DNA from: Candidatus Kaiserbacteria bacterium | GTDB lineage: Bacteria; Patescibacteriota; Minisyncoccia; Phycocordibacterales; Phycocordibacteraceae | Direction of reading: 5' to 3' | NCBI GenBank assembly: GCA_029288865.1 | Contig: JARIGM010000023.1 | Location: 3,039 to 67,038, forward strand | DNA: 64,000 nucleotides | Shown: piece by piece, positions 8,221 to 26,252 of the stretch | How positions within the stretch are numbered: the stretch's first letter is position 1 | How the letters are laid out: each line of letters starts with the position of its first letter | Made by a program: the position numbers and the translations under genes | Notes under the pieces: model-generated | Databases searched by the model: none | Seen by the model: only the letters and a program-made list of their open reading frames with translations | Told to the model about the DNA's origin: nothing

Positions 8221-8497
8221 GGATTTATTAGATATCGGTTATGTAATCATTATACAATATACAAATTAAACTGTCTGCCATCGGAAATACTCCTCCTCTT
8301 ACAAGAGGTGGCAGTTTAATCGCATCATCTGGCTCGTGCAGAACGGGCTCTTAGAGTTCGCCAAATATAATAGTCGGGCCATGGACAGCTGCTCTCGTCT
8401 CTGGGTAGTTGATTGTCACTTATCTATTGCATCTAAGAGCTCGTTTTCAAGACATGCTAAACGTTCGGGCTCGTTTTTGGCGTGAGAGGAGAAGTAA

Positions 8498-8944
8498 TTA
8501 GTACTTTTCAAAGCCTCCGAAGCTTGCATCTGGGTTGAACTCACGTAATGAATTCATGATTTTTTTAAGTCCGTACAAACGGTATATCCAGCTATAGAAA
8601 TTGTATTTAATTAAATTATCTTCTTTTTGGAAGACTAGCTGGGTGATAGATTTTTGCAGAGTTGCTGATCTAAGAGTTCCCTGTGGGATCACTACAGTTT
8701 CTCCAAACCATTCATAGATGGTTACGGATTTCATTCGTGTATCTATAATTACCTTTCTCACAGAACCAAGTATCATTCCGGGCAAACATACCAAGGGTGT
8801 GATCCATAAAAACGGATAAAAGAATTGAATATCTCTGTAGCAAATAGCATCTATCAGAACGATAACTGGAAAAAATATCAATACTAATATTGGTGTATAA
8901 AATTGGTAGGAGTGTATCGTATATATTTGTTTATCTTTCCACAT
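8498..8944 (-). CDS. small membrane protein (possible orphan immunity protein)
   Basis: 148 aa, 2-3 TM helices, AT-rich, lies in the RHS toxin/immunity island. Confidence 0.4.
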   Translation of the reverse strand: MWKDKQIYTIHSYQFYTPILVLIFFPVIVLIDAICYRDIQFFYPFLWITPLVCLPGMILGSVRKVIIDTRMKSVTIYEWFGETVVIPQGTLRSATLQKSITQLVFQKEDNLIKYNFYSWIYRLYGLKKIMNSLREFNPDASFGGFEKY

Positions 8945-8947
8945 AAT

Positions 8948-9265
8948 TTAATTGCTGTGCTGCGAATATTGATAATATTGTGCAGTATTGCCAATGTATA
9001 CAGTTCCGACAGCAATTATCCATCCGCCTATAACTATCATTACACCAAAGAAAGTTACGAGGATTCTATAGAAGCCCCATTTTGCTCGCTCTCTACTTCC
9101 CTCTAGAAATATTCCATCCATGAAAGTTTGGAATTTTTTATCATATGCATCGGCCATCGTTTTCCCAAATTCTTTACTATGCCAGATCACATAGAATCCC
9201 AAAATAAATAATGGTATCGAAATTATGATGTGCGTTAGCTGTATTGGGGCTATTGTTATCGGCAT
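8948..9265 (-). CDS. small membrane protein (possible orphan immunity protein)
   Basis: 105 aa, 2-3 TM helices, 3 bp from the previous ORF. Confidence 0.4.
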   Translation of the reverse strand: MPITIAPIQLTHIIISIPLFILGFYVIWHSKEFGKTMADAYDKKFQTFMDGIFLEGSRERAKWGFYRILVTFFGVMIVIGGWIIAVGTVYIGNTAQYYQYSQHSN

Positions 9266-9284
9266 AATAATTAATCCTCTCTAT

Positions 9285-9680
9285 TTATAGGAGAGAGACC
9301 TCTGGCGCTGTGTTAGAGATTATGTCTAACACGTGCGTATCGGTCTTGATTAAATAGTGAATCATTTTCCTGTCTTCGTAAATTCCGTTACTCTCATCAA
9401 TTAGCCATGAGATTAGATTAGAATTAGTTGAGGTACAGAATTGCCATTTGGGGTCTTCGAACTTTGACTTGATCCACATTCTGGTACGACCTGTCTCATC
9501 AATATTTTGATATAAATAATAGCGACGATATTTTATAGTAAGGGTTTTTGATTCATCAGACTCATCCTTAAGCTGAATAACTAATCCTTCATCATCTTGA
9601 TGGACATCTGTAATTAGAAAATTACCCGTAGTCTTTGCTCGGTCTTGCAATAATCTTAGTTCCATCCTTTTGTGTGCCAA
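9285..9680 (-). CDS. putative RHS-toxin immunity protein (orphan paralog)
   Basis: 131 aa; C-terminal half about 70% identical to ORF 15227..15613 (FEDPKWQFC.STNS.LI.WL.EES.GIYEDRKM.HYLIKT), the gene directly downstream of the giant RHS toxin. Confidence 0.5.
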   Translation of the reverse strand: MAHKRMELRLLQDRAKTTGNFLITDVHQDDEGLVIQLKDESDESKTLTIKYRRYYLYQNIDETGRTRMWIKSKFEDPKWQFCTSTNSNLISWLIDESNGIYEDRKMIHYLIKTDTHVLDIISNTAPEVSLL

Positions 9681-9722
9681 CCTGAACCTCGTCCCCCATA
9701 TAAAGACCTTTTCATATTTCCT

Positions 9723-10070
9723 TTAGCTCCTCGCAAGTCTATCTTCTTCCTTACCTTTGTCGGTACTCTCAAACCAATAGAACTCATCCGAATTTATTAC
9801 TCCAGGGTTCTCTACTTGTTGCATAGATGCTAAAAGTTCCTTTCTGAGTTTACCTTTATTCAAAACAGTAGGAGTGTAAGTATTATCAGTGGAGTTATAT
9901 TTTAAACAATTTAATTCTCCAGCATTTACGAGTTCCGCCAGAGTATCTACTATTTCTATTGCTTGCTCCTCCGTCTTTCCTTCAGATGAAGACCAGAACT
10001 CCCAAGAGCCGTATGCATCTTCAGAGCATAATTCAAGGATGTTTGATCGAATTTTGTTCCTGTTTATCAT
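9723..10070 (-). CDS. putative immunity protein for the orphan RHS-CT toxin 10078..11712
   Basis: 115 aa acidic cytoplasmic protein immediately downstream (8 bp) of the RHS C-terminal cassette; the position is that of a toxin/immunity pair. Confidence 0.45.
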   Translation of the reverse strand: MINRNKIRSNILELCSEDAYGSWEFWSSSEGKTEEQAIEIVDTLAELVNAGELNCLKYNSTDNTYTPTVLNKGKLRKELLASMQQVENPGVINSDEFYWFESTDKGKEEDRLARS

Positions 10071-10077
10071 ATATTAA

Positions 10078-11712
10078 TTATAATCCTTCTACTGAAGGGG
10101 TGGAATCTTCCTCATCTATATTAATACTCGGATTGTCTAATGTAGGGTTCCCTGCCAGTGGAAACGGCCCTGACTTAGTACCTTTCTCCGAAACACGTCC
10201 ATATGGTCCCCGTTTAATAGGGTTGGGATCGTTTGGGTTACCATTTTGTATGCGTACTTGGTCGCCAGGCCTATCTGGAACAGGATATCTCGTTCCCTGT
10301 TGGTTACTTGAGGGGTTACCTGGAATTCCCTTCTTTTTCATGATTTCGTCGATCTCCTGGGGTGTTTTGCCGGTTAATTCGCCCGGTGTTGGTAATGCTG
10401 GATAAGCAGAATTTGAAAGTATATGGCTTGGTGTTGAGAAGGAGTTACTTTGTACTCCGCTTACATTCGCCCCGAAATGCACCGCCGGAATATTTATAGA
10501 CTGCACAGCCTGTGCAGCATTAGAAGCTGCTTGTTGGGATGCATGTTGAATTGCCGGATTACTCAGGATTGCCTGGAGAGTAATAAGAACTGCCAATAAG
10601 GCAATGGCTATTGGTATTTCAAATGCAGTAAACTTTCCTGTAGGGTCTTTCTTTGTAATAGGATTATCCTCGGCATATGAGTAACTATTTAAGCTCTGAG
10701 GGTCTTCCAAGATTTGACTCTTAGGATCACCCAAGAAGACTGGGTCTTCAGATAAGAATTGGCCTCTCGCAGAATCCTGGTATCTTGCATTCAAATAGTT
10801 AAGTTGGGTATTCCCGTCATACTGCTCGCCAATAAATTTCCTCTTTGTTCCGGTATACGTTCCGGCAAGCGTATCGGTACGGAGTGCGCCATACGGGTAG
10901 TAGTGGAGTGCTTCGTTAAGCAGTCCGGCGCTGTCTGTGAGTGCATTTGCACCGCCCAAGTGATCTGGATGGACATAGTAAGTGGAGGTAGTGGTTCCCA
11001 CGGTCGGGGTCGTAGTTGCAGGCTTAAAGGCAGCAATTGCCATACTCCAATTCTGAGTTGCAGCGCCGGTATACGTGTCGGAGATAGAACCAGCGGCTCC
11101 CGCAACTTGATAACTTGCCGCACCTAAAGTCGTTGAGGCAACGTTGTTGAACAGCGAGGTGCGATTTGTAGTAGCAGTGGTGGTTGAGTTTCTGCTGAGT
11201 GTTGCCACCACGAGATCGCCCGTTAAACGCGTGGTAACCGAAGCGGTGGGACTGCTCGTAGTACCTATAGCTGTTGAGGTAGCATCAAGGCCTGATTGAC
11301 TTGCTCCCGAGTAATCCGAAAGCCCAAACTTAAGCGCATCAGTCGCCCCATTAACAGTAACTGAGATGGTGTTAGTACCGGATGGCGGTGCAACCAGATA
11401 CCAGAGCTCAGAAGCCATAGTTCCGCTTAGGCTGCTTGCGGCTTTAATCAGCGGCATGCCCGCATAGGTAGCTGAGGAGATCGATCCCGTGCCGGCTATA
11501 TGCTGCAATATATCGGCCGTGAGGACCAAAAGGCGGTTAGTACCAAACGAAGTAGTATGAGTCCAGCTCTTCGTCGTGGTCGCGCTTGCTCCGAGGGTGA
11601 AGTTCGTCGTGACTGCATTTAACAGTAGTGTCGAAGTCGCGGCTGTCGTGGTACCGACCGTATTCGGGCCATATCTATCAGGAGTTAGCTGGTAAGACAA
11701 TGCCCCATCCAT
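10078..11712 (-). CDS. orphan RHS C-terminal cassette (T/S-rich domain + RHS core end + divergent C-terminal toxin tip)
   Basis: 544 aa; residues about 20-390 are about 75% identical to residues about 2290-2660 of the 2780-aa RHS protein ([16 protein letters not shown]...[10 protein letters not shown]...DNPITKKDPTGK), then a TM segment and a different tip; own TG-TATACT promoter upstream. Confidence 0.8.
   Translation of the reverse strand: MDGALSYQLTPDRYGPNTVGTTTAATSTLLLNAVTTNFTLGASATTTKSWTHTTSFGTNRLLVLTADILQHIAGTGSISSATYAGMPLIKAASSLSGTMASELWYLVAPPSGTNTISVTVNGATDALKFGLSDYSGASQSGLDATSTAIGTTSSPTASVTTRLTGDLVVATLSRNSTTTATTNRTSLFNNVASTTLGAASYQVAGAAGSISDTYTGAATQNWSMAIAAFKPATTTPTVGTTTSTYYVHPDHLGGANALTDSAGLLNEALHYYPYGALRTDTLAGTYTGTKRKFIGEQYDGNTQLNYLNARYQDSARGQFLSEDPVFLGDPKSQILEDPQSLNSYSYAEDNPITKKDPTGKFTAFEIPIAIALLAVLITLQAILSNPAIQHASQQAASNAAQAVQSINIPAVHFGANVSGVQSNSFSTPSHILSNSAYPALPTPGELTGKTPQEIDEIMKKKGIPGNPSSNQQGTRYPVPDRPGDQVRIQNGNPNDPNPIKRGPYGRVSEKGTKSGPFPLAGNPTLDNPSINIDEEDSTPSVEGL
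10400..11700. repeat. about 1.3 kb duplicated segment: orphan RHS cassette is paralogous to the 3' part of the main RHS gene (about 15900..17200)
   Basis: The protein alignment is near-collinear at about 75% identity across the T/S-rich and core-end regions; this gives a substrate for homologous recombination and tip switching. Confidence 0.7.
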
Positions 11713-11742
11713 AAGATGAGGCTTCCCACCAGTATATCACAA

Positions 11743-11761
11743 ATATTCCATTTTGGAATAT
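11743..11761. promoter_or_regulatory. perfect palindrome ATATTCCA-N3-TGGAATAT in the divergent promoter region between the XRE gene and the orphan RHS cassette
   Basis: Seen directly in the sequence; 8-bp arms and 3-bp spacer; also overlaps a TGGAATA direct repeat. Confidence 0.5.
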
Positions 11762-11787
11762 CCCAATATGGAATACAGCCTATAGGT

Positions 11788-12006
11788 ATGAAGAAATCCA
11801 TTCATACCGATGAACAGGCAATGTTTGTGAAGCGACTTCGCAAAGCACGGATGGAGGCTGGCCTTACACAAGTAGAAGCTGCTGCGAAACTGGGAGCTAG
11901 TCAGTCTTGGATATCAAAAATTGAACTCGGTGAGCTTCGGGTTGATGCAATATCACTTAATCGCATTGCAAAACTCTACGGTAAACCTGTTAGCTATTTC
12001 CTGTAG
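11788..12006 (+). CDS. XRE-family helix-turn-helix transcriptional regulator
   Basis: 72 aa from the internal ATG; LTQVEAAAKLGASQSWISKIELGE is a classic Cro/C1 HTH; the palindromic operator lies just upstream. Confidence 0.75.
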   Translation: MKKSIHTDEQAMFVKRLRKARMEAGLTQVEAAAKLGASQSWISKIELGELRVDAISLNRIAKLYGKPVSYFL

Positions 12007-12152
12007 CCAGACAGAAGAAGCCGAGTGGTCGGTCTTCTGTCAGCCGGACTAGTCCGGGCTTCGCCATGCACTTTGCGGTTACGCAAATCCAATGGCACGC
12101 CTTCCGGCCGCTGCCTACCCTATCGCACTTCAGGTGTTCTGCGAAGGGGCAA

Positions 12153-12335
12153 CTAATGTGCTACTTTAACACGGCGTTTTATAGGATTAGGAGATATAAG
12201 TACTTCACGTCCGGTCTTTCGAGAATGTGCGGTATGAGCAATCTTAAAGCCCTGCACTTGCCTCTTTCCGTATAGCTCTCGAACATACGGCGTATCGTCA
12301 TATGTCATTACCCAATCAAGAATCGAGGTATCCAA
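12153..12335 (-). pseudogene. C-terminal remnant of a Dam-family (D12 class) N6-adenine DNA methyltransferase
   Basis: 60 aa ORF; VMTYDDTPYVRELY...REVLISPN resembles the Dam C-terminus (V.ISN.DT...RE.Y...); no N-terminal catalytic region is present. Confidence 0.45.
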
Positions 12336-12414
12336 AAAGTTTGCCAGATTCTCGTGATTCTCCTTCGGCTATGACAACGAAGAATACACTCTCAAAGATA
12401 AACAGATTGAGCTA

Positions 12415-12810
12415 TTGAAACAGATTCCCCTTCTGCACAAGAAAGAGTTGGTTGACGTAAGTCTCGCGCAGTATTGCGAATCTACGAAAGAGCAATTTAA
12501 GACCCTGAAGGATTTTGAGTCTAGAAGGCAATTTCTACTGGATCACATTGATAGGGTTATAGTTGCGAAGAATTCAATATCTATTTACGGCTATGTTCCC
12601 GTTCGACTTAAGGTATATGAAGATCCAGATCAGCCAAATGGTGCAGGTAAGATTTGGTTTTGCATTGAGAAAGAGCTAGATCGCACTCGCTTAGTCGCCA
12701 AGTTGCAAAATAGAGACAAGAAACAAGATGTGTTAGACGGTACAAAAATTACTTGGAATGAATACAAACAATTATCTGAAATCAGAACTGGAGGTTTATA
12801 TACGCTCTAA
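12415..12810 (+). CDS. hypothetical protein or gene fragment (no ATG; TTG start in track; frame open back to 12358)
   Basis: 131 aa ORF; in-frame upstream extension FSFGYDNEEYTLKDKQIELLK with no start codon suggests a truncated gene. Confidence 0.3.
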   Translation: MKQIPLLHKKELVDVSLAQYCESTKEQFKTLKDFESRRQFLLDHIDRVIVAKNSISIYGYVPVRLKVYEDPDQPNGAGKIWFCIEKELDRTRLVAKLQNRDKKQDVLDGTKITWNEYKQLSEIRTGGLYTL

Positions 12811-12841
12811 ATTATCTATCTGCTGTTACGTTAATGCGGTT

Positions 12842-13117
12842 CTAGAGTTTTATCCCAGATAAGTAAATTCCACCGATAAGAACGAGACCAAGCCCAATCG
12901 CTAAAGCATAGCTGGTAGCAGTCATAAACATGCCGTCAGCCATTACGTCACTACCTTGAGAATTGTGGTAGAGATTCTTTTTAATCCAGCCTACAATTCC
13001 TGTTTTCATACCAGGATACCAATTAAAGTATGCAACTACCGACAACAAGAGAATGCCAACCAAGGTCACTACTACTGGTTGGTAATAAACAATTAATTGG
13101 TTGAATAAATTTTGCAT
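12842..13117 (-). CDS. two-TM membrane protein, putative immunity protein for RHS-CT fragment 13119..13970
   Basis: 91 aa, two hydrophobic helices, 1 bp downstream of the toxin fragment. Confidence 0.45.
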   Translation of the reverse strand: MQNLFNQLIVYYQPVVVTLVGILLLSVVAYFNWYPGMKTGIVGWIKKNLYHNSQGSDVMADGMFMTATSYALAIGLGLVLIGGIYLSGIKL

Positions 13118-13118
13118 A

Positions 13119-13970
13119 TTAGTTCTTTTTGTTATTAGTACTCTTATTGGAGGATGATTGCAAGGTGTTTACCAACTGAGTAAGGAGATGAACTTCCTGG
13201 GTCAGGAGACTTATCACATCCGATACCCCACTTACCCTACCTCCTGCGAGTGTAGGTGCTACGTTCATGGCGAAGTTTCCTGCACTTGAATAGGCAGCAG
13301 ATGGATTCTGATTATTAATAGATCCAACAGTGTTTATGGCTGAAGGGATTCCAAGCGCAGAACTACCAGCAAGGAAAGCATACCCAGCGGATTGAACCAG
13401 TCTACCTGCAAGGAAGTAAGTTCCTACTCCTGCTCTTAGAGAAGTAATCGCCACTGTTGAAGTAAGCGCCGCATCAGCTACAGGAGCCGAGAATAAGCCT
13501 ACCACTGCACCTGTTCTATATGGATGATCAAGCGCGGTACCCCAAGCTGGATTCACCTGAGGCAAATAAACTGTCGCATTATTAATCTCACCATTAAAAC
13601 TAGCCCAAGATTGTTGTCCTGTGAGAAATTCTTGATACCACAATCCCGATGGATCAGATTTTGAAATCGGATTGTCTCTACCGTAAGAATACGAATTTAA
13701 TGTTTGCGGGTCAGAAAGAACCGATGTTTGATCCGTCTGAGTGAGACTCTGTAATCTCTGTTGGTTTCCAATTGCTAGGAATGTAGGGTCCTCCGAAAGG
13801 AACTGGCCACGGGAAGGGTCTTGATACCTAGCGTTGAGATAGTTCAAATTCGAACTGGCGTCATATATCTGTCCAATATAAATGGGGCTACCGACACCTG
13901 CTCCTATTTTTGAGTAGTGTATACAGCCTTCCTCATTTGCATCCAAGACTCCATTTTCAAGCCACACCAA
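13119..13970 (-). CDS. orphan RHS C-terminal fragment with Gly/Ala-rich (membrane-active?) toxin tip
   Basis: 283 aa; [21 protein letters not shown]...NSYSYGRDNPISKSDPSGL matches the RHS core end and DPxGL motif of the main RHS, followed by a G/A/S-rich tail; TTG start, truncated N-terminus. Confidence 0.7.
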   Translation of the reverse strand: MVWLENGVLDANEEGCIHYSKIGAGVGSPIYIGQIYDASSNLNYLNARYQDPSRGQFLSEDPTFLAIGNQQRLQSLTQTDQTSVLSDPQTLNSYSYGRDNPISKSDPSGLWYQEFLTGQQSWASFNGEINNATVYLPQVNPAWGTALDHPYRTGAVVGLFSAPVADAALTSTVAITSLRAGVGTYFLAGRLVQSAGYAFLAGSSALGIPSAINTVGSINNQNPSAAYSSAGNFAMNVAPTLAGGRVSGVSDVISLLTQEVHLLTQLVNTLQSSSNKSTNNKKN

Positions 13971-14082
13971 GCGTTCGAAGTCGGTCTCAACCTGAGAAGG
14001 AGCGAGAGTGCTGAAGCGGGTTTCCAGATTAAATTCAGAAGGTTGTTTTGGGTTTTGGAGGAAATTTACACTCCATTGTAAT

Positions 14083-14724
14083 TTATGACATTTTCGTCGA
14101 AGAATGTGGAATTCCTAGTGCAAATTGCAGCTTCAGGCCTTCTGGTAAAGCTATGGTTTGAGCTCCTACTCGTAATATTTTGTGCTCAAAATCTCCAAGA
14201 TCAATATCCAGCTGGTGACCAGGCTTAGTTAAATCTGCGGCGGGATCCATAAATGCATTTCCTTCCTCATTAATAAAAGAAAAGACTATAACCATAGGCT
14301 CTGCTATCTGCTCGTTACTCAAAATCAAATCGCCTTCCTCAGGTTCTACTATAGTTAGTGCACTAGTATCCCGAAAATAAAGACTGAATAGGTGTCTGTT
14401 GATCGGATGTTCAACGTTAAAATGGATACGTAAAATGCCAGACTCTTCCCTCCCTTCTTGTTTTATCTTCAGTGTACGCTTTTCAAAAACGTACGATATT
14501 TCAAGACTCTCTCCAATTGGCACATTCTTTGTCACCGTTGGTGAACTAAAATCAGCTTCGTGTATTGATCCTTTGAATTGCCGTGGAAAAGTCTGGAATA
14601 AGTCCAGTTTATTATTGAACGATATTTTTAGTTCATAATCCCCGCCATGTAGCGGCATTATCAGAAGAGTGCCAATAAGCGCTCCATTCTTTAAAACTAG
14701 TCGACTTTTCCTAAGTGGGTGCAT
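14083..14724 (-). CDS. hypothetical protein (island cargo)
   Basis: 213 aa, AT-rich, no recognisable motif. Confidence 0.4.
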   Translation of the reverse strand: MHPLRKSRLVLKNGALIGTLLIMPLHGGDYELKISFNNKLDLFQTFPRQFKGSIHEADFSSPTVTKNVPIGESLEISYVFEKRTLKIKQEGREESGILRIHFNVEHPINRHLFSLYFRDTSALTIVEPEEGDLILSNEQIAEPMVIVFSFINEEGNAFMDPAADLTKPGHQLDIDLGDFEHKILRVGAQTIALPEGLKLQFALGIPHSSTKMS

Positions 14725-14733
14725 GACTAAACC

Positions 14734-15024
14734 CTAATCATTCCACAAATTAATATTTTCTTTTTTAATTTCTGCGAGCCATTTCGAAAATTCTCTATCA
14801 TCAATATACTTATATTCATCTCTGTCTTTTTCACTTGGGTCCTTGGCTACAAGAAACATTTTCTCGTTGATTTCATCTAAAAGATCCGCCTCATTCGGTT
14901 CTAATACTTTGTTTCTTTCTTCAGATTCAACGCCAAAATATAGTTCGTTGAATTGAGAATAGAATTCATCATAATCAATTCTATACTTGAGAAAGGAGTT
15001 GATCAAATCAGCAAATTCCTTCAT
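14734..15024 (-). CDS. small acidic protein, possible orphan immunity protein
   Basis: 96 aa, highly acidic, D/E/K-rich, in the toxin/immunity island. Confidence 0.35.
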   Translation of the reverse strand: MKEFADLINSFLKYRIDYDEFYSQFNELYFGVESEERNKVLEPNEADLLDEINEKMFLVAKDPSEKDRDEYKYIDDREFSKWLAEIKKENINLWND

Positions 15025-15226
15025 ATGGATTATTTTAATACTAATTTACTTAACTGGCTAACAAGGTTCGAGAGTTGACTCAAAATACCGCCGAGTCGTT
15101 GTAAATTTCCATTTGCGATATTGTTCGTCACTCCCATACCTACTCTCAAACCCCAAGAGAATAGTGTCCTCCATTTGCATCCCGTATTAGATGTAGCTCG
15201 TTTGATACGTTTACGAGTTTAATTTC

Positions 15227-15613
15227 TTATTTGATTATAGTGACTTTAGGCTCAACTTCGGAAATCACGTCTAGCACGTCTGTCCATGTCTTAATTAAAT
15301 AGTGGGTCATCTTTCTATCTTCGTAAATACCGTCACTTTCTTCTTTTAACCATTTAATTAAGCTGGAATTAGTTGATACGCAGAATTGCCATTTAGGATC
15401 TTCGAACTCAGCATGAGCCCATAGTCTTATACGCCCGGATTCATCTACATTTTTATATAATAAATATTGAGTAAAGGTTATTAAAATAGAAATAGAGTTC
15501 TCAGACTCTGCTTTAAGAAGAATCTTAAGCCCCTCGTGATCTTGATGTACATCAATGATAAAGAATTCCCCCACGAGGTCTTTCACGGGTGTCCAGTTAT
15601 TAAAAGTATCCAT
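15227..15613 (-). CDS. putative immunity protein of the giant RHS toxin
   Basis: 128 aa from the internal Met (MDTFNNW); the start is 1 nt after the RHS stop; paralog of 9285..9680; the longer 160-aa version in the track would overlap the RHS gene by 95 bp. Confidence 0.5.
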   Translation of the reverse strand: MDTFNNWTPVKDLVGEFFIIDVHQDHEGLKILLKAESENSISILITFTQYLLYKNVDESGRIRLWAHAEFEDPKWQFCVSTNSSLIKWLKEESDGIYEDRKMTHYLIKTWTDVLDVISEVEPKVTIIK

Positions 15614-15614
15614 A

Positions 15615-18600
15615 TTATTCATTATACCGAGTCTTTTCGATATCACCATTTGGTTTCTGTACCTCAAGTGTCGGACGTCCTTCTTTGCTCTGCGGCCGTA
15701 CGTTGACATTACTTCCGTCTTCTAGTTGACCAGCAGTAGTTCCATTTGGATATGTCTTAACATTCGTAGGATTAAGCTTTTTAAAATCTTGCAATGCTTG
15801 CGGGTAACCGCCATCCTTCTCTTTAAATGAAGTATCCCCGCCCAAGCTATTTTTTGCGAAATTAATATTTGTCGAAGGGATTGAATTTGAGGAGTAGGAC
15901 GGTACACCTTGAGTTGCAGGCGTAGAGAATGGATTGCTTTGAACTCCACTTACGGTACCTCCAAAATGCACTGCGGGAATACTTATTGAGGAAGCTGCTT
16001 GAGACACTCCATAACTTGCCTGCTGTAGCGAATGCTGAACTTGAACATTCGAGAGTATTGCAAGCAAGGCATATGCAGCAGCGAGCAGACCCACAATTAG
16101 TACCCCTTGAGGGCTTACAATGGCCTGCTTTCCATCAGGATCTTTTTTGGTTACCGGGTTATCATTCGCATAGCTATAACTATTCAAACTCTGTGGATCT
16201 TGTAAATTCTGTTGAGAAGGATTCCCCAAGAATACTGGATCTTCGCTCACAAACTGTCCTCTTTGTGGATCCTGATATCTAGCGTTCAAGTAGTTCAGAC
16301 CAGTAGTCCCGTCATACTGCTGCCCAATATATTTCCTCTTGGTTCCGCTATACGTTCCGGCAAGCGTATCGGTACGGAGTGTGCCATAAGGATAATACTG
16401 GATCGATTCATTAAGAAGGCCGGAACTGTCGGTAAGAGCATTCGCTCCACCGAGGTGATCTGGATGAACATAATACGTGGACGTGGTAGTACCATTTGTT
16501 GGCGTTGTAGTTGCAGGCTTAAAGGCAGCAATTATCATGCTCCAGTTTTGGGTTGCCGTACCGGTGTATGTATCGGAAATAGAGCCAGCTGCGCCTGCAA
16601 CTTGATAACTCGATGCTGCAAGAGTAGTAGAAGAGACGTCATTAAAGAGCGAAGTGCGGTTCGTGGTTGCGGTAGTCGTCGAGAACCGGCTTAGAGTTGA
16701 CTCCACAAGATCTCCGGCTAAGTGGCTCGTGACCGAAGCGGACGGATTGCTGGTGGTACCGGTTGCTGTTGACGTAGCGTCAAGCGGAATGAATTGGTTC
16801 ACGCCCGTGTAGTCGGCAAGAGAGAATTTGAGAGAGTCAGTCGTACCGCCAACCGTCACAGATACGGTATTTAATCCCGAAGGCGGAGCAACGAGATACC
16901 AGAGCTCACTCGCCATGTTCGAGGCACGAGTCGCTACCGCCTTGACAAACGGAATACCCGCATAGGTTGCTGAAGTGATAGCGCCTGTGCCAGCTACATG
17001 CTGGAGAATGTCTGCAGTAAGCACAAGGAAGCGGTTATTTCCAAAAGAGGTTGTGTGAGTCCACGACTTAGTGGTGGTGGCCGTGTTGGCTATGGAGGAA
17101 ATGTTAGTACTTGTAGCATTCAGGAGTGGTGTCGAAGTCGCGGCTGTCGTGGTGCCAATCGTATTCAGCGTGGCAACGAGAAGTCCGTTTGCGTAGATGT
17201 TCTTTGTTATGGTCGGACTCGCGCCTGCCGTGCTGCTGTAATACTTATTGGGATAGAACGTGGTTATTCCACCGTCCGTGGTCTGGACTCGGCTACCTGC
17301 ATAATCGTACAAGTACGTGGAAGTTGCTGAACCCTTCCCTACTTGTGCTAATTGATTGAGATAGTTCCAAACATAGTTGTATGTACCATCTGACGTCAGG
17401 TTTCCGTTATTGTCGTAGGCAAGCGTGCTGGTTGCCAATCCATACACGATAGACGTCGGTGCATGCGGATTCGCATAGTTGGTACCTATATTGCCTTGAT
17501 AATAATAGCCTCCTCGATCAGAACTCGTCGCAATGCCTCCAAGCGGATTGTAGGTGTATGAGCGGATGTATGGTGTCTGGAATCCTGCAAGCGTTGAACT
17601 TGCGAGAGTAAGTCGATTGAGCGGATCGTAGGTAAATGCTGTTTGCTCTGATCCATTCACGTCATCGAGAATGCTCGTGATATTTCCTGCTGGATCATAG
17701 GTGTAATGGAAACTCTGGATGTGTGTACCGTCATCAGCCATTGTAAAGTGATCCGTGCCACTCGACCACGGACTCGGATTGCCTGCACTATCCCAGAGGC
17801 GCATGCGGTAATAATATGTCGTATGATCGAGCGCGAGCGGAGTGCCCGTATAATACAAGTCCTGGGTCTGATTTCCTGCTGATGTCGTTGGTGAAAGGCT
17901 GAGTTTGCCGCTATCCCATAATGGGCTGGTGAAGCTGCTGCTTGTCGCGGTCTGAATCTGGTAGTACACCGCAGTGTCTCCGAGGTCGGGATCATTATAT
18001 TGAGCGCTAAATCGAGGTGAAATATCTGTTACATTTATCGGATTAGTCTGATCTTCTGCCATGAGCTGTGTAGTGGTACCGGGCGCCACGTTTGGCAAGC
18101 TGTAGGATATTTCTAGGTAAGGGTCTTGTGACGTACCTGAGTTACGGGAGCTTGAAAAGGTTACTCGGGAGAATAGCCAATGAAAGTTATTATTGACGGC
18201 CTCATTGTCTGTCGAGTCGTGGCCTTCTCGTAAGCAGAGTTTCGTATACCCAGTGGTTGAAATCCAGCTCTTCCCCGCCGTTGTGAGAGGATAGGCTTGG
18301 TAGGTATTTACGGTCGAGCTTGCTATAGGCGTATCAATTGATCCCTTTGTCGGATTAGTGATAGCATCGCCACAAGCGCTTATATCAGAATTACTGAGTG
18401 TAGCCGGAGAAGCTTCGAAACCTTGATATACATTTATGTTCGAATATGCATCATTAAAAGCATTATCGGTGCTTTGAACATATGCATAGAGGGTTGATGA
18501 ACTGATTATAGCGTTATCTGGTAGTGCTGAAGTATCTATCGGCACAAAACTCCGCACGATGCTGAGATACCCGCTACCACTCGCGAACGCCTGAGAATCA

Positions 18601-21600
18601 ACTTGCAAGTAGAAGCCGCTATACTCAGCGTTTACGCCTGTGGTATCTGCATGCTGTGTTTCCCAAGAACCCGGATATGGCTGAGTCTCTACTTCCCCGT
18701 CTCCCGGTCCACCGAAGTTACTAAAGGTAAGGTCGGCTCGGACAGGATACTGTGCCTTAGCAAGCCAGCTGTACGGGATCAGCTTGGTGACATAGATACC
18801 ATCTGTCTTCAGTTGATAAGTTACTGATATCGGAATCTGATTGTTCGGATCGTCTTGGTTTGAGCCCTGCGCGCTCGGTTGCCAGATATACGCGAGTATG
18901 TCTTTTCCGCTGAGGATAGTCGCCTCGTTTGTGGTTGTAATAGTTTTCGCATCGCTCAAAAGTTTACCGTCTACCAGTATGTCAAGGCTGCCGGTGCCGC
19001 TTGCGGCTGCAAGCTTGAACGTTATTGCGTAGTTTGTAGCGGTGCCGGACTGTGTGGGTTCCTTCGTAAGAACGACATCCTTCTTCAAATACGAGTCGGT
19101 AGATGTGATTTCCAAATTAGCTCCACTGCCAAGCGCACCGGTATAGCTGAAGAGTGCACTTCCGTCTGGGTTTGTAGTTTCAATCGGCGCGACTGTCTTT
19201 GCTTTTGAATCCGCAAACGAGACCGTCATAGTTCCGGATTGGCCCGTGTAGGTAAAAAGATTAGAAGCGGAGCTTTTTGCTATTTTCGCTTGGTATGCGG
19301 CCTGCGTGATGTTTGTCGTGGTCTTCGCATCCATAATCTTGGTAAATGAACTGAGCGGCTGGAATGCACCTGAGGCATCCTTGGCAAATTGCGGACCAGT
19401 ATGAAACTCCGTCTTGTACATATGATCGCCATTGGATGTGTGGCCGAGAAGGTAGGTCTTGGTATTCTCCGTCCGCGCGTTCTGTATTTCTATTGGATTT
19501 GTCGGTGATGCGAGCGACATATCCTGCATCGGAGAGCTTTGTACTGCAAGAGCATTCTGCTGCGTCATCTGCATCGGAGCGAAGAGATGGCCAGTACCGG
19601 GGCCGACAGTCTTCCGATACGTCAAGCGATAGAGCGCGTTCGGATTATACGTGTTGAAAGTCTCGACTGAATTGCCGTCTCGTTGATATGTAATCTGTCC
19701 GTCTGGACCATACTCGATATCAGCAATGATGGCCTTCGTCGTGGTCGCAGGCTGTTCTAATTCGCTAATGGAACCGAGTTGCCCCAGGTTATTGTAAAGA
19801 TAATAAACAACTGCATTGTCAGGATAGGTTTGGGTGATGGTATTCCCTTGTAGGTCGTATCCATACTTGGTGACAAATGAACCATTGCCTACCGCCTCTG
19901 TCTCTTTATTGGTCCGACCGAGTGGATCGTAGGCATATGTAGTAGTGGCTGAGTTAGTAGCAACACTGCAGAGTTGACCGATTCCGAAGCTGCATGAGTC
20001 ATAGGTAAAGATCTTCTCTGTGCCTGGTATGACTGTGTAGTCCTCGGTCACTTCTCTGTTTAAGGCATCATAGGTGTACTGAATCGTCTGTGATTTAGGG
20101 TCTACGACGGATGTCTTGTTACCTGCTGCATCATATGTGTAGGTCCAGGTACCAAAGCTTGAATCACCTGGCGCGTGGAGATCCTGAGCTGTTAATTCTC
20201 TACCCAAACCGTCATAGGTAAAGAAGCGAACATCACCCGACGCATCGGTTAGAGAGGTGAGATTATTGTTGCCATCATATGCATATTGGGTACTGTAAGC
20301 CGAAGCACCATTATGCTCGATTACATCTATGAGGTTTGTATAGATATCATAGACAAGATCTTTCGAGTGACCGTTGGCATCTGTTATCGTGGTGGTCGCG
20401 ACATTATACGCGTAGGTCGTACTTCCCACTGAATTAGTAATTGATTTCGCCCGATATATTGGGTCGTAGGAATAGACGGTGTACAAGTTCGCGTTTGTAG
20501 TAGGTGTCGTACTACCTGCTCCGTTACTGAAATACGGCAACGATTGCTTGCTTAAAAGCCCAAGACTGTTGTACTGGTAATCCTTTGTCGGATAATCACT
20601 GCTTCCGAAGCCCGGACCAAGACGGGATTGGAATATGCGGCCTAGGCCATCCAGATATGAATATTCCAATGTGCTGGTCGCAGCTGAGAGGTATCGCGTC
20701 TTGTATAAGTATGGGAATCCGGTATCGACATAGGTATAGCGGGTCTGGAGCACAGGTGCTGAAGTGCTTGCCGTCGAATCTGGCTGATATTGCAACAGTA
20801 TTCGACCCAGGCCGTCATACACGTTTGATGAAGTGCTCCCGTTTGGGTCGGTCGTGGTCGCAACCTTACCTGTAGCGTAATCATAAGATGTATATGTCTT
20901 CTGGTTCAGTGGATTGGTAGTAGTCGCTACATACAGACCGTATGGGTCATACATAAACGAAGTCGTGTTGCCCCGAGCATCCACTTGGTTCGTCGGTAAG
21001 CCAAATGCATTATATGCAGAAGTCGAGCTCGCATACATTGGAGTACTCGTTCCAGATACCCAACGCGCTACTTTAGTAAGGTTACCAAGCACTGCGGTAC
21101 CGAGTGGACTCGAATCGTAATAGTACTGCTGCTCATTTACTTTATTTCCAGCCTGATCCTTTTTCGTTTTGTCGGATTGAAGAACGATATAGGGAGCTGT
21201 ACTCGAGGCATATAAATTCGTAGTGGTGTACGAGTCGTTGCCCACGTCGGTGAACGTTCCGTCGTCATTGCCATTTACCAGACCCCAATTGGTTGAGCTT
21301 GCTATGACGCCAGTTCCAGTGTCATAAGCATTCGTGGTTGCAGTGTCTCGATGGGAGGTGCCACCGTCGTACATGGAATCAAGCTGCTGAAGTAATTCGA
21401 CAAAAGTCCGTCCTCCACTGAGGCTCGCCATATCCCACTTGAAGATGTCTTTCTTGTACAGGTTGTTTGCGTTATCGTATGTCTCTATGCGGTAGGCTTT
21501 ACCTATCTTTGATGGGTCGTCCTGATACTGACCATGCGAAGTATCGGAGGTACTATTCCCTTGATCGTAATAGGTGTTCGTAACATTCCCGGCCGGGTCA

Positions 21601-23957
21601 GTCTTTACTATTTTCTGGAACCCGCCGAACTGCCTGTTGAACGCGTTGCTGTAGTGATAAGCCCCGTTTTGGTAAGAGTAGTTCGTACTCGAGACGGTTC
21701 CGAGTCCATTATCAAGCGTAATATTTGACACAGTATCAACCGAAACGCTCAGCTTCGGATTAAGTAATTGTCCACTGCTCAGATATAGCTGCGAAGACTG
21801 ATAGGTATAGTTCGCAGAACCACCTTCCGCAAATTTGATCTTTGATAGGAGATCGGGTGTCGAATCATTATTGACGTCAACTTCACCGGCAGAAGTATAG
21901 GCAAAAATGAGATCTGGTAGGTTATCGCCGTTCACATCGGCAATGCGTACACTGTCATCGAGATTATCCGTGGTAAATGTGAGCGGCGATTTCCAGGATG
22001 AATCTTGTGTCCATCCGGATCCATTGTTGATCCACGCGGTCGTGACTCCTGTGCCTACATGACTCCACGACTGAAGTACATCTACTAATCCATCGCCGTT
22101 CACGTCCACAAATCGCACGCCATCATCATAATAGTTGGTTGAGGTGTCGTACGTGCTCATGGGAGCTGGCGCTACCCATTGTGGATCCTGTATCCAACCG
22201 CTGCCGGTATTGATCCATATTTCGTTATTAGAAGATGTACTTAATGCGTATGATTGTACGAGGTCTGGAAGACCATCGCCGTTCACGTCTACCATACGCA
22301 CATAATTATCTGAACCATTCACGCTAAAATTAACGGGAACCGTCCAATTGCTCAACGTCCAGCCAGAACCGTTGTTCAGGTAGACATATGAAGAGCCGTC
22401 TGCCGATTTTACGATGTCAGTAAGACCATCGCCGTTCACGTCGATATACTGGCCACTCGTTGCAAAACCAGAATCGTTTTGTACGACTGAAGGGATACCC
22501 CACGTTGAGGAAGCAACCCAACCGTTACCGGTATTAAGGTAGGTTACTCCACCTACAATCTCGTCCGTCAGGTGGTCGCCGTTTACATCGGCATAGCGTC
22601 CGAGGCTTGTAGAGGTTGCCGCACTCAGGGTGGTTGAAGCTGTCCATGTCGTACCAGTGTTTATGTATACTGCGCTGGTTCCGGCACTGGTATTCACTTT
22701 TACAAAGTCCACCATCGAGTCGCCATTCACGTCTACGAGAGAGACGCTTGAGTCAAATGGCACAGGAGGAACATAAGAAGTTGATTGATTCCAGCTTTTC
22801 GTTCCTGGTTTGTACGATAACTGTACTGCTGGCAGCGTTGTTGTGGCTCCATTTGCATAACCTGATTCGAGAATAGAGCTCAGCAAGGAACGCGTCGTAT
22901 CTACCCCAGCCGTGTACGAAAGAGCATAGTCATGCGTTAGTACGTTGTTTATTCGGATCAAGATATCACTTATTCTGAATCGTGAAGTCACCGGAAAGCC
23001 AGTCGCAGTAGATGTGGCAATATCCGAACGGGTTGTCGTCGCGTAATCAATCTCGAAGATGCCAGCCGTCGTGCTGCTGTTGGTATATAGAATTTTAAAG
23101 GGATATATCTCACCTTTATCTTTCGAATATTGGTACGTTATGTAATTCCCATTCGGATCTCGTACTTCTTGAAGCATCCACTTATATATCTGAGTGTTGT
23201 CTGTAGGATTATCTTGTCGAGCAGCGGTGGTAGTTCCGAACGTGTAAGTATTCCCATTTTTATCAGTGAGTGTCCAGGATGTGGTACTCGCTACGTATTG
23301 GTAATGATTGAAGTTTCCATTTTCGACTCTCGCTCCATATGTTGTTGAGCTCGCCATGATTGGATATAGCTCACCATCAAGTGAGCTATAAAAGTAATTT
23401 TGAGAATAGAGCGAATCAGTCCCCTTCCTATTTATACGCACGATGTATGGAATATTGGTGTCCCAGCCATATCCCATCACATTTACATTTGCACTAGGCT
23501 GACTGGTGTACTTGAGGTCTACCGAAGGCTGCAATCCATTTCTTCCAGGAGGAATTTGAATTGGAAATGTGTAAATGAGAGAGCCGGTCACTGGGTCGGT
23601 CTCACTATGAAATTTAGAATCAAGAGTGTTATGCGTAAGATCAGGGGCGGGTGCGCCGCTCAAGCTTGAGAATGTTTGTGTTGACTGAGTTGCCGTCGGC
23701 GAACTCTGTTGGTCCGTGACAGTTGACTTGTCAACAGACGTGGGCGAAGCCGCGGTGTCTTGACTGGCGGGAGTATTAGAATTAACCGTCGTATCAGAAG
23801 AAGTTGTAGGTGTTTGAGTTTGGTCTGTCGGTGGCGAGCTATCCGTTGTTTGTGCGTGTCCAATGAATGGAGAAATGGAGAAGAGAAAAATTAAGAAAAT
23901 TACCGCTCCTTTTTGTAGCAGAATTGTCTTGTTGCCCCATCCATAAGCATTCTTCAT
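15615..23957 (-). CDS. giant secreted RHS-repeat polymorphic toxin (SpvB-like N-domain, FG-GAP/VCBS repeats, YD/RHS repeats, RHS core, variable C-terminal toxin)
   Basis: 2780 aa; signal peptide; [17 protein letters not shown]...GYGWD SpvB/TcB-like motif; six or more (V/I)DVNGD(G)L.D repeats; many YD repeats; [10 protein letters not shown]...[12 protein letters not shown] core end (DPxG autoproteolysis motif) followed by a TM segment and a tip of about 170 aa. Confidence 0.9.
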
Positions 23958-24052: not shown

Positions 24053-25162
24053 CTATTTCCCTTTCTTTGGGCGGTTGGCGGCGATGTTGATGATGATCCC
24101 GACAGAAATGAGTGCAGCGAGAAGCGCCGTACCGCCCTGGCTCATGAACGGAAGCGGAAGACCTGTTAGTGGTAAGACGCCAAGCATCGCGCCGATATTA
24201 AGGAATGCAGAGATGGTGATGAGAAGCGAGAGGCCGGTCGCGCTCAAAGAGCCAAAGACGCTTGAGGCCTCGGCGGCGATCATAAATCCGCGCGTTATGA
24301 AAGCTATGAAAAGCGCGATCAAGATAACGGTCCCGATGAACCCGAACTCTTCCCCATAGACAGCAAAGATCGAGTCTCCATTGGGTTCAGGCAAATAATT
24401 GAACTTCTGCACGCTCTGGCCGTAGCCGCGGCCGAGCAGTTGTCCTGACCCGATCGCAATAAGAGATTGTTGGATCTGATACCCACTCGAAAGTGCGTGA
24501 TGCGAAGGATGGATGTATGTGTTGATGCGATTCAAGAGATAGGGGCGAATCGCCACGAGTAGTGCGAGCCCTGCGACCGCTGTGACGAGGATGATCGCGA
24601 AATCACGCCATGGCGCGCCCACGAGGAAATACAGCGCTACTGCCGTCGCACCCATGACGAGCGTCGTGGACGTGTTCGGTTGCGCGATAAGCAGGAGTGA
24701 TGGAATTCCCACGATAAGCGCGAATGGCAAGAGGCCATGTCGCATGTCGCGAATCTTCTTCTTCGCATGCGCAAGGTACGAAGAAAGCATGAGAATCACG
24801 CTAATCTTGAGGAATTCTGCCGGTTGCACCGTGAGCGGACCGATCTGAATCCAGCGGGTCGCACCGTTCGTGTGGTAGCCCAGGTGCGGAATGAACACGA
24901 GCATCGTGAGGAGTATGGAAAAGATATAGAACGGCAGTACGGACTTCTCTATCCAATGTGGCGGAACGAATCGTAACGCGATAACCGCAACTACGCCCGG
25001 AATAAGGCCGAGGCATACCTGTGTGATAGCGATGTGCCACGGCGTCTCCCCTGCTCGAGCAAGGAGGCCAAGCGAGGCGGAAGTAAACATTGCGAGACCG
25101 CCCACCACGAGGATCGTGACGACGGTAGCGAAGATGCGATCTCCAAAGAGGCGTTCAAACAT
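24053..25162 (-). CDS. ftsW: SEDS-family peptidoglycan glycosyltransferase FtsW/RodA
   Basis: 369 aa, about 10 TM helices, FtsW/RodA/SpoVE family pattern; lies between mraY and murG (after the island). Confidence 0.85.
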   Translation of the reverse strand: MFERLFGDRIFATVVTILVVGGLAMFTSASLGLLARAGETPWHIAITQVCLGLIPGVVAVIALRFVPPHWIEKSVLPFYIFSILLTMLVFIPHLGYHTNGATRWIQIGPLTVQPAEFLKISVILMLSSYLAHAKKKIRDMRHGLLPFALIVGIPSLLLIAQPNTSTTLVMGATAVALYFLVGAPWRDFAIILVTAVAGLALLVAIRPYLLNRINTYIHPSHHALSSGYQIQQSLIAIGSGQLLGRGYGQSVQKFNYLPEPNGDSIFAVYGEEFGFIGTVILIALFIAFITRGFMIAAEASSVFGSLSATGLSLLITISAFLNIGAMLGVLPLTGLPLPFMSQGGTALLAALISVGIIINIAANRPKKGK

Positions 25163-25163
25163 G

Positions 25164-26252
25164 TTACTTCAACAATGCGAGCGCGATACCGAAGATACTT
25201 CCCATGATGGTGATGATCCAATATCGCATCGTGACCTTATACGGAGGCCAGCCGATGGCTTCGAAATGATGATGGATCGGTGCGATACGGAACACCTTTT
25301 TCTTGAACACTTTCTTTGCGATCACTTGGATGGCATTTGTCACGACGGTGGCAGTGAGGGGGAATGCAATGATCGGAAGCACGGAGACGCCAACTCCCCC
25401 GCCAAGCGTGTCTGCGGAGAACGCTGTGACAGCGAGCGCGAGCGTGAGTGCCATGCTGCCGGTTTCAGAGAGATAGAATCGCGCCGGCGGTACGTTAAAC
25501 CACAAGAACGCAAAGACTGCTCCGGCGACCGTTGCAGCAAAGCCTGCCAGAGCTATCTGATTTTGCGCGAATCCGATAGCTGCATATGCCATGAAGATGA
25601 TCGCGAAGACGCCGCCTGCCAGGCCATCGATGCCGTCGATAACGCCGCTCGCATAGATCGCAAGCGTCACGAACACGAAGAACAGTATGAAAAGCGGACC
25701 GAGCTGGAGCGAGCCAATGAATGGCAATCCGACAGATGAAACGCCGAGCTTCGCATAAAACCACCAACCGGCAAATGCACCGAAGACAGCGACGATAGAA
25801 AGACGCCACCGCAGACGGAGTCCGCCATTGCTGCGAGTGATCTCGAGGAAATCGTCGAGGAATCCGGTGAGTCCTCCCACAACGAGCGCCGTAAGCGGCA
25901 GCCACGTCTGGCCACGATTCACGAAGTTCAAGAGTGAGAACGGTCCGTCAAAGATGGTGCCGAGAAGCATGAGTCCCGCAACGGTCACGAGCACACCGCC
26001 CCACACTAAGAGACCGCCCATGCGCGGCGTTGAGACTTCGCGTTCCTTGTGGAGCTCGTCGAAGAGCGGCGTACCGTTCTTGTCCCCCATGCCGTTGCCC
26101 TTTCCGCCGCGCTTCTTCCACGCACGGAATTTATACAGGAAATGCGTGAGGAATGGAGCGATCAGCATCCCTACAGAGAACGAGATGACGAATGGCACCA
26201 GTACGCGAGCTGCATTGAGAAGAACGGGCGTGAGTACTGGTGCGTTGATCAT
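25164..26252 (-). CDS. mraY: phospho-N-acetylmuramoyl-pentapeptide transferase MraY
   Basis: 362 aa; C-terminal APIHHHFE...GW signature of MraY. Confidence 0.9.
   Translation of the reverse strand: MINAPVLTPVLLNAARVLVPFVISFSVGMLIAPFLTHFLYKFRAWKKRGGKGNGMGDKNGTPLFDELHKEREVSTPRMGGLLVWGGVLVTVAGLMLLGTIFDGPFSLLNFVNRGQTWLPLTALVVGGLTGFLDDFLEITRSNGGLRLRWRLSIVAVFGAFAGWWFYAKLGVSSVGLPFIGSLQLGPLFILFFVFVTLAIYASGVIDGIDGLAGGVFAIIFMAYAAIGFAQNQIALAGFAATVAGAVFAFLWFNVPPARFYLSETGSMALTLALAVTAFSADTLGGGVGVSVLPIIAFPLTATVVTNAIQVIAKKVFKKKVFRIAPIHHHFEAIGWPPYKVTMRYWIITIMGSIFGIALALLK

Follow-up and report, generated by a model that had tools for sequence, protein, structure and literature searches.

The 64,000-nucleotide stretch of Candidatus Kaiserbacteria contig JARIGM010000023.1 analyzed here (hereafter the window) carries a giant rhs gene, followed directly by a small gene (Imm1) and, further downstream, by orphan rhs cassettes with additional small genes (Table 1). 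The region 9285..23957 is, in our judgement, very probably an Rhs/YD-repeat polymorphic toxin locus used in inter-bacterial competition by a Patescibacteria-type host. The build of the locus is ordinary for Rhs; what makes it of interest is a widespread and uncharacterized toxin–immunity pair, formed by the C-terminal tip of the main Rhs protein and the product of Imm1.

As proposed in the initial annotation, the main rhs gene is a single open reading frame (ORF) of 2780 aa. It starts with ATG, and the domain order given there, with every part listed, is borne out by Pfam and NCBIfam profile scans. The N-terminus reads as a Sec signal peptide of n-h-c layout: the n-region is basic, the core hydrophobic and the cleavage-type site GHA. 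In the spacer that follows, the 74 residues from 37 to 110 include 19 threonines, 15 serines and 8 prolines. Beyond the SpvB/TcaC domain, the propeller region matches FG-GAP_3 (PF13517, E = 9.7e-19) and TcdB_toxin_midN (PF12256, residues 662-795, E = 4.6e-18); at least six DVNGDGLxD beta-propeller repeats had been claimed, and the count of D[VI]NGD motifs is exactly six (residues 409, 457, 506, 557, 618 and 674). The shell is recognized by RHS_repeat (PF05593, E = 2.6e-18, six significant stretches), TIGR01643 (E = 4.7e-18) and NF041261 (E = 2.3e-20), the NCBIfam matches including RHS_core and YD_repeat_2x. The Rhs-associated core matches TIGR03696 over residues 2521-2609 with 53.4 bits against a cut-off of 32.5, and ends in a DPxG-type motif just before the toxin; it is presumed to serve as autoproteolytic plug and cleavage site. 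Every testable defining feature of an Rhs/YD polymorphic toxin is present at this locus.

The shell also contains two large non-RHS inserts. Insert 1, which together with the downstream orphan cassette array was absent from the initial annotation, can be assigned only in its last 100 aa, where Ig_Rha78A_N (PF25788) matches residues 1963-2066 (E = 8.1e-12 and 2.2e-12 in two scans); its remainder gave no further Pfam or PDB match. Insert 2 corresponds to a T/S-rich insert of about 200 aa that had been noted before the core. The segment does exist, at residues 2266-2481, but it is a conserved domain, 73% identical in orphan cassette 2, and not a linker; it has no Pfam or PDB match. Past the core lies a hydrophobic segment (residues ~2616-2648, Kyte-Doolittle 2.44) that AlphaFold2 (AF2) models as a helix. 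The architecture is not an assembly artefact: P0256, a homologue, covers 100% of the length in alignment, at 59% identity.

Table 1. Features of the rhs locus, with window coordinates and residue numbers of the main Rhs protein
Feature	Residues	Position	Strand	Description or basis
Main rhs gene	1-2780	15615..23957	-	2780-aa SpvB/FG-GAP/RHS toxin, predicted Sec-exported; ORF and Pfam/NCBIfam domains
Signal peptide	1-35	23853..23957	-	predicted cleavage after GHA, before QT; read from sequence
T/S/P-rich spacer	36-121	23595..23852	-	composition
SpvB/TcaC N-terminal domain	122-282	23112..23594	-	PF03534, E = 7.9e-18
FG-GAP propeller and TcdB_toxin_midN	~405-795	21573..22745	-	PF13517, PF12256
RHS/YD shell, part one	~796-1457	19587..21572	-	approximate bounds; PF05593, TIGR01643, NF041261
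Insert 1 in shell	1458-2070	17748..19586	-	~610 aa, non-RHS; Ig_Rha78A_N at end
RHS/YD shell, part two	2071-2265	17163..17747	-	approximate bounds; YD motifs at residues 2085, 2215
Insert 2	2266-2481	16515..17162	-	conserved T/S-rich domain before core; 73% identical to orphan 2
Rhs-associated core	2495-2610	16128..16475	-	ends DPDGK; TIGR03696
Constant pre-toxin segment	2611-2680	15918..16127	-	common to orphan 2 up to FSTP
Polymorphic tip	2681-2780	15618..15917	-	family clusters, AF2
Folded beta-alpha-beta5 domain of tip	2709-2780	15618..15833	-	family clusters, AF2
Imm1		15227..15613	-	128 aa, acidic, no signal peptide; ATG 1 nt after rhs TAA
Two low-GC ORFs		14083..15024	-	96 aa (14734..15024, GC 0.31) and 213 aa (14083..14724, GC 0.40)
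Orphan cassette 1		13119..13970	-	truncated Rhs core (DPSGL) and other tip; TIGR03696 43.8 bits, core tblastn 59% identity
91-aa hydrophobic protein		12842..13117	-	directly after orphan 1; candidate membrane immunity; no family match
XRE-family helix-turn-helix gene		11716..12006	+	opposed to cassettes, between orphans 1 and 2
Orphan cassette 2		10078..11712	-	544 aa: insert-2 domain, core, transmembrane/pre-toxin segment, third tip (10078..10423)
115-aa ORF		9723..10070	-	directly after orphan 2; candidate immunity, by position only
Imm2		9285..9680	-	Imm1 paralogue, 61% identity

A database search with the main Rhs protein returned 556 homologues at E <= 1e-10 out of only 8000 scored candidates, and an identical protein is already on record (P0253). 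The best 120 of the 556 all combine SpvB, FG-GAP and RHS in proteins of 1.8-3.9 thousand aa. Those with names come mostly from the Patescibacteria group, Minisyncoccia, Parcubacteria, Paceibacterota and Ryanbacteria, with a few of Acidobacteria type, and a scan of genome contigs found just two matches, a relative in Acidobacteriaceae (31% identity) and a core fragment in Paceibacterota (47% identity). Judged by the named relatives, the reduced-genome bacterium suspected in the initial annotation is plausible. SpvB with an integrin-like propeller and RHS behind a signal peptide is moreover the described 'TcdB/TcaC-type' class of polymorphic toxins (Zhang 2012, PMC3482391, Table 1). With the class described in 2012 and 556 homologues at hand, the notion that such an architecture without a TcA partner is unusual is not supported.

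We then delimited the tip. The main gene and orphan 2 are homologous until ...VSGVQSN.FSTP and diverge totally afterwards. Because the divergence starts after FSTP, the polymorphic part consists only of residues ~2681-2780, and the helix and the spacer belong to a constant pre-toxin region common to orphan 2; the roughly 170-aa tip of the initial annotation therefore shrinks to its last ~100 aa. The tip ends in KTRYNE, and its variable part has no histidine. Among the 120 closest full-length relatives just two carry it, namely the identical protein P0253 and P0343, and the three Rhs cores in the window bear three unrelated tips.

Beyond Rhs relatives, the tip belongs to a large family. An exhaustive HMMER scan over 1.84 billion representatives, clustered at 50% identity, yielded 683 clusters at E <= 1e-3, with 40 at E <= 1e-10. 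A word-indexed homology search with a 122-aa tip query gave no match, which we regard as a sensitivity artefact because the HMMER scan then gave 683 clusters. In all of the best 150 matches, found on host proteins of 63 to 2407 aa, the domain is no more than 28 residues away from the C-terminus, and 95 have it exactly at the C-terminus. Carriers include RHS proteins of the same SpvB architecture (P0001 and P0024) and PT-HINT proteins, and a profile search with the tip added 186 further 'hypothetical' proteins, some of them recorded under Neisseria gonorrhoeae, Salmonella enterica, Desulfobacter and Margulisbacteria. The consensus of the family reads GG..A..DF..LNP.NV...PNGT.vG.LpDG..vNVRP.S.dGRPTLEiq....iKiRY. 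Eight residues, R2754, S2757, R2761, T2763, E2765, K2775, R2777 and Y2778, are conserved in at least 82% of the members, and all are kept here.

Two carriers of the same tip also differ in their shells when inspected by eye. P0001 (1698 aa) has tandem repeats resembling carbohydrate-binding modules in place of insert 2, before the core, and P0024 (2407 aa) has DUF2341/LamG-like sequence elsewhere in the shell. These two proteins suggest that the Rhs shell may have hot spots at which binding modules are swapped.

Using an alignment of 91 sequences, AF2 modeled the tip confidently, with a pLDDT of 88 and a predicted TM-score of 0.75, in the topology beta1-alpha1-beta2..beta6. In this model R2754 is placed on beta4, T2763 and E2765 on beta5, and K2775, R2777 and Y2778 on beta6. 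A single-sequence AF2 model of the last 170 aa shows a long helix and a disordered spacer, followed by the same domain.

The tip had been called unplaceable in known toxin families, and our searches agree. For the tip itself, Pfam had no match up to E = 10, and for each of 44 family members neither Pfam nor NCBIfam had one up to E = 1; a PHROGs scan of the tip had no match. Sequence (phmmer) and profile searches of the PDB returned only spurious PPR/TPR repeat matches with per-domain E-values in the hundreds, and Foldseek comparisons of the 170-aa single-sequence model and an 85-aa alignment-based model with PDB and BFVD gave none at E < 1e-3. When the tip was compared by hhalign with the last 140 aa of each of 120 sister Rhs proteins, some of which bear PF00545, Ntox21, Ntox44, Tox-REase-7 and DUF4258 tips, only P0253 and P0343 were detected. 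The GRPTLE/RPTLEIQ motif was not found in the literature searched, and neither the tip nor the immunity family was found among the motif descriptors of one survey (Zhang 2012, PMC3482391).

Imm1 had been put forward as the protective partner of the tip, and conserved synteny strongly supports this. Through a tip sub-alignment we sampled 80 metagenomic loci, and in 74 of them the sequence continues for 330 nt or more past the tip ORF. An ORF of the Imm family adjoins the tip on the same strand in 67 of these 74 independent loci (91%), and one pass of phmmer, with Imm1 of the window as query, detects 65 of the 67. Pairwise, Imm1 matches partners with E-values of 9e-12 (L002), 7e-9 (L001) and 3e-45 (L089), L001 and L002 being independently found loci. 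The pairing is also seen in an N. gonorrhoeae record (L086) and another cassette array. It recurs after P0343, an Rhs relative with 67% identity in the tip and 48% in the Imm, and there the similarity begins exactly at beta1 of the 72-aa domain. Because of this sharp start and the conserved pairing, the exchangeable unit is the 72-aa domain together with its Imm gene.

Imm1 has a pI of 4.9, a net charge of -8 and no transmembrane segment. Its family is acidic as well (median pI 4.8, net charge -7), and neither Imm1 nor the family has a Pfam, NCBIfam, PHROGs or PDB match. Homologues of the tip and Imm also occur in arrays with other cassettes (L002, 2066..3037; L087, 911..1720 and 5258..5509; L086, 1823..3334). 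Their companions there, PT-HINT/Ntox37, Ntox33, CdiA_C/SitI3, SUFU and Imm33-like genes, are those of typical polymorphic-toxin islands, one of them in an N. gonorrhoeae assembly. It is possible, though we propose it with considerable doubt, that the 72-aa tip and its acidic partner of ~130 aa form a new, phylum-spanning toxin–immunity family with a fold and activity outside PDB and Pfam, delivered in Patescibacteria by a self-sufficient Rhs cocoon whose shell binding domains and post-core helix replace TcA or a type VI secretion system (T6SS).

A working model for the locus can be outlined from these features. The 2780-aa protein would be exported by Sec, and its SpvB domain would join with the six-bladed FG-GAP propeller and the RHS repeats in a closed TcB/TcC-like cocoon, as in solved Tc and Rhs structures. 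Going by what the family is known to do, the aspartyl-protease Rhs core would cut after DPDGK, and the C-terminal fragment of ~170 aa, made up of the constant hydrophobic helix, the spacer and the 72-aa beta-alpha-beta5 toxin domain, would be kept in the shell. More speculatively, the helix and spacer, possibly with the Ig-like and unassigned shell inserts, could mediate target binding and membrane entry without TcA. The toxin probably acts in the cytoplasm of the target, because the immunity protein is cytoplasmic and soluble. The producer would be shielded by the acidic, cytoplasmic Imm1, whose pairing with the tip is taken from synteny and whose neutralizing role is presumed. The two displaced orphan core/tip cassettes and the extra immunity genes would serve as a stock for switching tips and for protection from the toxins of neighbours.

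From its context we infer that the tip is catalytic, and its activity is perhaps that of a metal-independent RNase; we favour this tentatively, with somewhat less than even confidence. The guess follows from the small size, the helix packed on a meander sheet, the placement of conserved residues on three adjacent strands, with Arg-Tyr at the C-terminal end, the lack of any metal-binding motif and the acidic inhibitor. R2754, S2757, T2763, E2765, K2775, R2777 and Y2778 would be the candidate residues. BECR, RelE and microbial RNase toxins resemble the tip in their size of ~70-100 aa, in one helix on an antiparallel meander sheet, in conserved Arg/Lys/Glu/Tyr residues with a C-terminal Arg-Tyr and in an acidic inhibitor, yet no sequence, profile or Foldseek similarity between them and the tip was found. 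An ADP-ribosyltransferase, considered for the R...S...E pattern, was rejected: just 3-11 positions separate these residues, and a domain of this size is much too small.

Several observations weigh against the model and its RNase step. The best partial Foldseek matches of the tip are EspG and VOC half-domains, at TM-scores of 0.4-0.5, and not RNases. The hhalign comparison of the tip profile with PF00545 (barnase-type), Ntox21 and Tox-REase-7 sister tips gave probabilities below 4%, and below 1% for the PF00545-bearing sister tip. The tip family is basic, with a median pI of 9.3, whereas the window's own tip is not (pI 6.5). Of 80 relatives, no more than 29 have a post-core helix that clears a strict hydrophobicity threshold. 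The RNase guess thus stands without homology or fold support, and the tip cannot be filed in an RNase, Ntox or Tox family; the signal peptide, autocleavage, the cocoon and the roles of helix and inserts are likewise inferred.

The tip could instead be a toxin that Imm1 neutralizes and that is not an RNase, such as a DNase, an enzyme that targets nucleotides or cofactors, or a protein that inhibits an essential cytoplasmic target protein stoichiometrically. We regard this as possible, if doubtful. The missing fold and profile ties to any RNase family fit it, as do the resemblance of the fold to generic beta-alpha-beta meanders such as VOC halves and the near-neutral tip in the window. Among the new short polymorphic-toxin domains PT1-PT9, moreover, with their novel folds, PT1 and PT7 proved to be DNases (Nachmias, 10.1101/2021.10.19.465003). 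However, the tip lacks a conserved His or an Asp/Glu cluster such as a metal-dependent nuclease would need, and the domain is only ~70 aa; the acidic Imm fits nucleic acid mimicry, which would suit a DNase and an RNase alike.

The PT1-PT9 domains are short C-terminal toxin domains with adjoining immunity genes, found across phyla; PT3 is ADP-ribosyltransferase-like, PT2 is restricted to Neisseriaceae, and crystal structures of PT1 and PT7 were reported (10.1101/2021.10.19.465003). The tip is of the same kind, a short unannotated C-terminal toxin domain with an adjoining immunity gene. We found no evidence that it is one of the nine: its motif strings are absent from one supplementary file of that study (10.1101/2021.10.19.465003), and the PT1 and PT7 structures, if deposited in the PDB, were within the scope of the tip's sequence and profile searches, which gave no match.

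It is improbable that the helix is the active part, as a membrane-inserting, depolarizing toxin or as an anchor in the producer membrane, with the 72-aa domain as an accessory or binding module. A strong transmembrane-like helix does lie directly past the cleavage site, and some Rhs tips are pore-formers, e.g. Tse5 of Pseudomonas aeruginosa. Yet the helix sits in the constant region common to orphan 2, whose tip is unrelated, and the 72-aa domain and Imm co-occur on carriers that have no helix. Imm1, in turn, is soluble and acidic and has no transmembrane segment. As read from the sequence, lysines N-terminal of the helix would oppose a stop-transfer (N-out/C-in) anchor. We rejected the anchor as the main reading on this charge distribution, and an anchored toxin would stay in the producer.

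The protein might also be the BC (TcB-TcC fusion) subunit of a eukaryote-directed Tc ABC toxin, with TcA encoded elsewhere; we think this very improbable. The BC-subunit set of domains, i.e. PF03534, PF13517, PF12256, PF05593 and TIGR03696, is present in full. In TcB-TcC cocoons such as Photorhabdus TcdB2-TccC3 and Yersinia entomophaga YenB-YenC, an SpvB N-domain, a propeller-closed RHS shell and an aspartyl-protease core that releases the encapsulated toxin recur in the same way. Unlike those, the protein here is one fused polypeptide, and its tip bears no relation to the TccC ADP-ribosyltransferases. A TcA partner, which forms pentamers, would have about 2500 aa and the VRP1 or TcA_TcB_BD domains. 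Apart from rhs, the 64-kb window has no ORF above 640 aa, and no TcA-type Pfam families occur within 6-10 kb of the relatives P0256 and P0258, one of which shows the same layout of main gene, immunity gene and orphans. The immunity coupling in 91% of loci and the orphan cassettes are signatures of antibacterial polymorphic toxins, and the same tip stands on PT-HINT proteins and in the Neisseria cassette array. Because of the immunity gene and orphan cassettes, an antibacterial role is likelier than an insecticidal one. As far as examined, the protein resembles a TcB-TcC cocoon in its working but has no TcA partner in the window or in the flanks of the two relatives.

A non-toxic surface adhesin or teneurin-like shell for host attachment would suit the Ig-like and other inserts, the T/S/P-rich stalk and the episymbiotic habit of many Patescibacteria, but with the Rhs core intact, the toxin–immunity module conserved, orphan cassettes present and every family-invariant tip residue kept, it is barely credible.

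The antibacterial polymorphic toxin that we favour can be set beside known systems. With the 'TcdB/TcaC-type' toxins it shares the domain order, the variable C-terminal toxin, the adjoining immunity gene and the orphan cassettes; unlike them, it has two large non-RHS shell inserts and a hydrophobic helix past the core, and its tip and Imm fall outside Pfam, which contains the Ntox, Tox and Imm families of that survey (Zhang 2012, PMC3482391). The enterobacterial and T6SS Rhs effectors have in common with it the RHS shell, the DPxG core end, the polymorphic tip with immunity gene and orphan cassettes with a 3' constant region, whereas here there is no PAAR, VgrG or T6SS link, and the N-terminus consists of a Sec signal peptide and SpvB/propeller domains. 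Bacillus subtilis WapA is a Sec-exported YD/Rhs wall-associated toxin with tRNase tips and the immunity protein WapI. It likewise is a signal-peptide-dependent Rhs/YD toxin of a cell without an outer membrane, with a small nuclease-type tip (here putative) and an adjoining immunity gene; unlike the protein in the window, WapA has no SpvB/FG-GAP cap, and the tips are unrelated.

The tip/Imm pair, with clear boundaries, candidate catalytic residues and a partner gene, is directly testable. With curated Pfam and NCBIfam models of both, hundreds of genes listed as 'hypothetical' in polymorphic-toxin islands would receive an annotation.

Downstream of Imm1, orphan 2 is the cassette closest to the main gene, with 73% aa identity to its C-terminal region up to FSTP and 72% DNA identity over 1047 nt. 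Because the DNA identity is only 72%, the orphans are old displacements. Neither the orphan-2 tip, which bears …GKTPQEIDEIMKKKG…RPGDQVRIQNG…, nor the 115-aa ORF that follows has a Pfam, NCBIfam or PHROGs match; the two are probably a second uncharacterized toxin–immunity pair. Imm2, likewise with no match in these three libraries, is an orphan immunity gene, because no tip of its family adjoins it, and it could protect against toxin variants of neighbours. The 96-aa and 213-aa ORFs, which have no Pfam, NCBIfam or PHROGs match, are possibly further orphan immunity genes. The orphan-1 tip (13119..13649) is Gly/Ala-rich and hydrophobic, with no family match. This tip and the 91-aa hydrophobic protein suggest a toxin directed at membranes and an immunity protein that resides in the membrane.

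The island spans ~7090..23957, between murG (5902..7056, Glyco_transf_28) and ftsW (24053..25162). GC content is 0.55 in the flanking cell-wall genes and declines, via 0.48 for the rhs body and 0.42 for the tip, to 0.31-0.40 for the immunity-type genes, which is a classic signature of exchanged rhs C-terminal/immunity cassettes. As ftsW and murG are normally neighbours in the dcw cluster, this arrangement and the lower GC relative to the flanks suggest that the island was inserted into the dcw cluster. Promoter and terminator scans at the locus remained at chance level. The 17-kb island, which includes an 8.3-kb gene along with two orphan cassettes and a number of immunity genes, is an investment of a probable ultra-small bacterium of CPR (candidate phyla radiation)/Patescibacteria type in contact or secreted warfare, and it bears on the competition or host dealings of such episymbionts.

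Ten housekeeping proteins of the window, e.g. DnaK (46864..48756), GltX (4421..5875) and MraY (25164..26252), are singletons at 90% clustering among ~15 billion proteins. From these ten singletons, DnaK included, the host lineage appears to have been sequenced only once.

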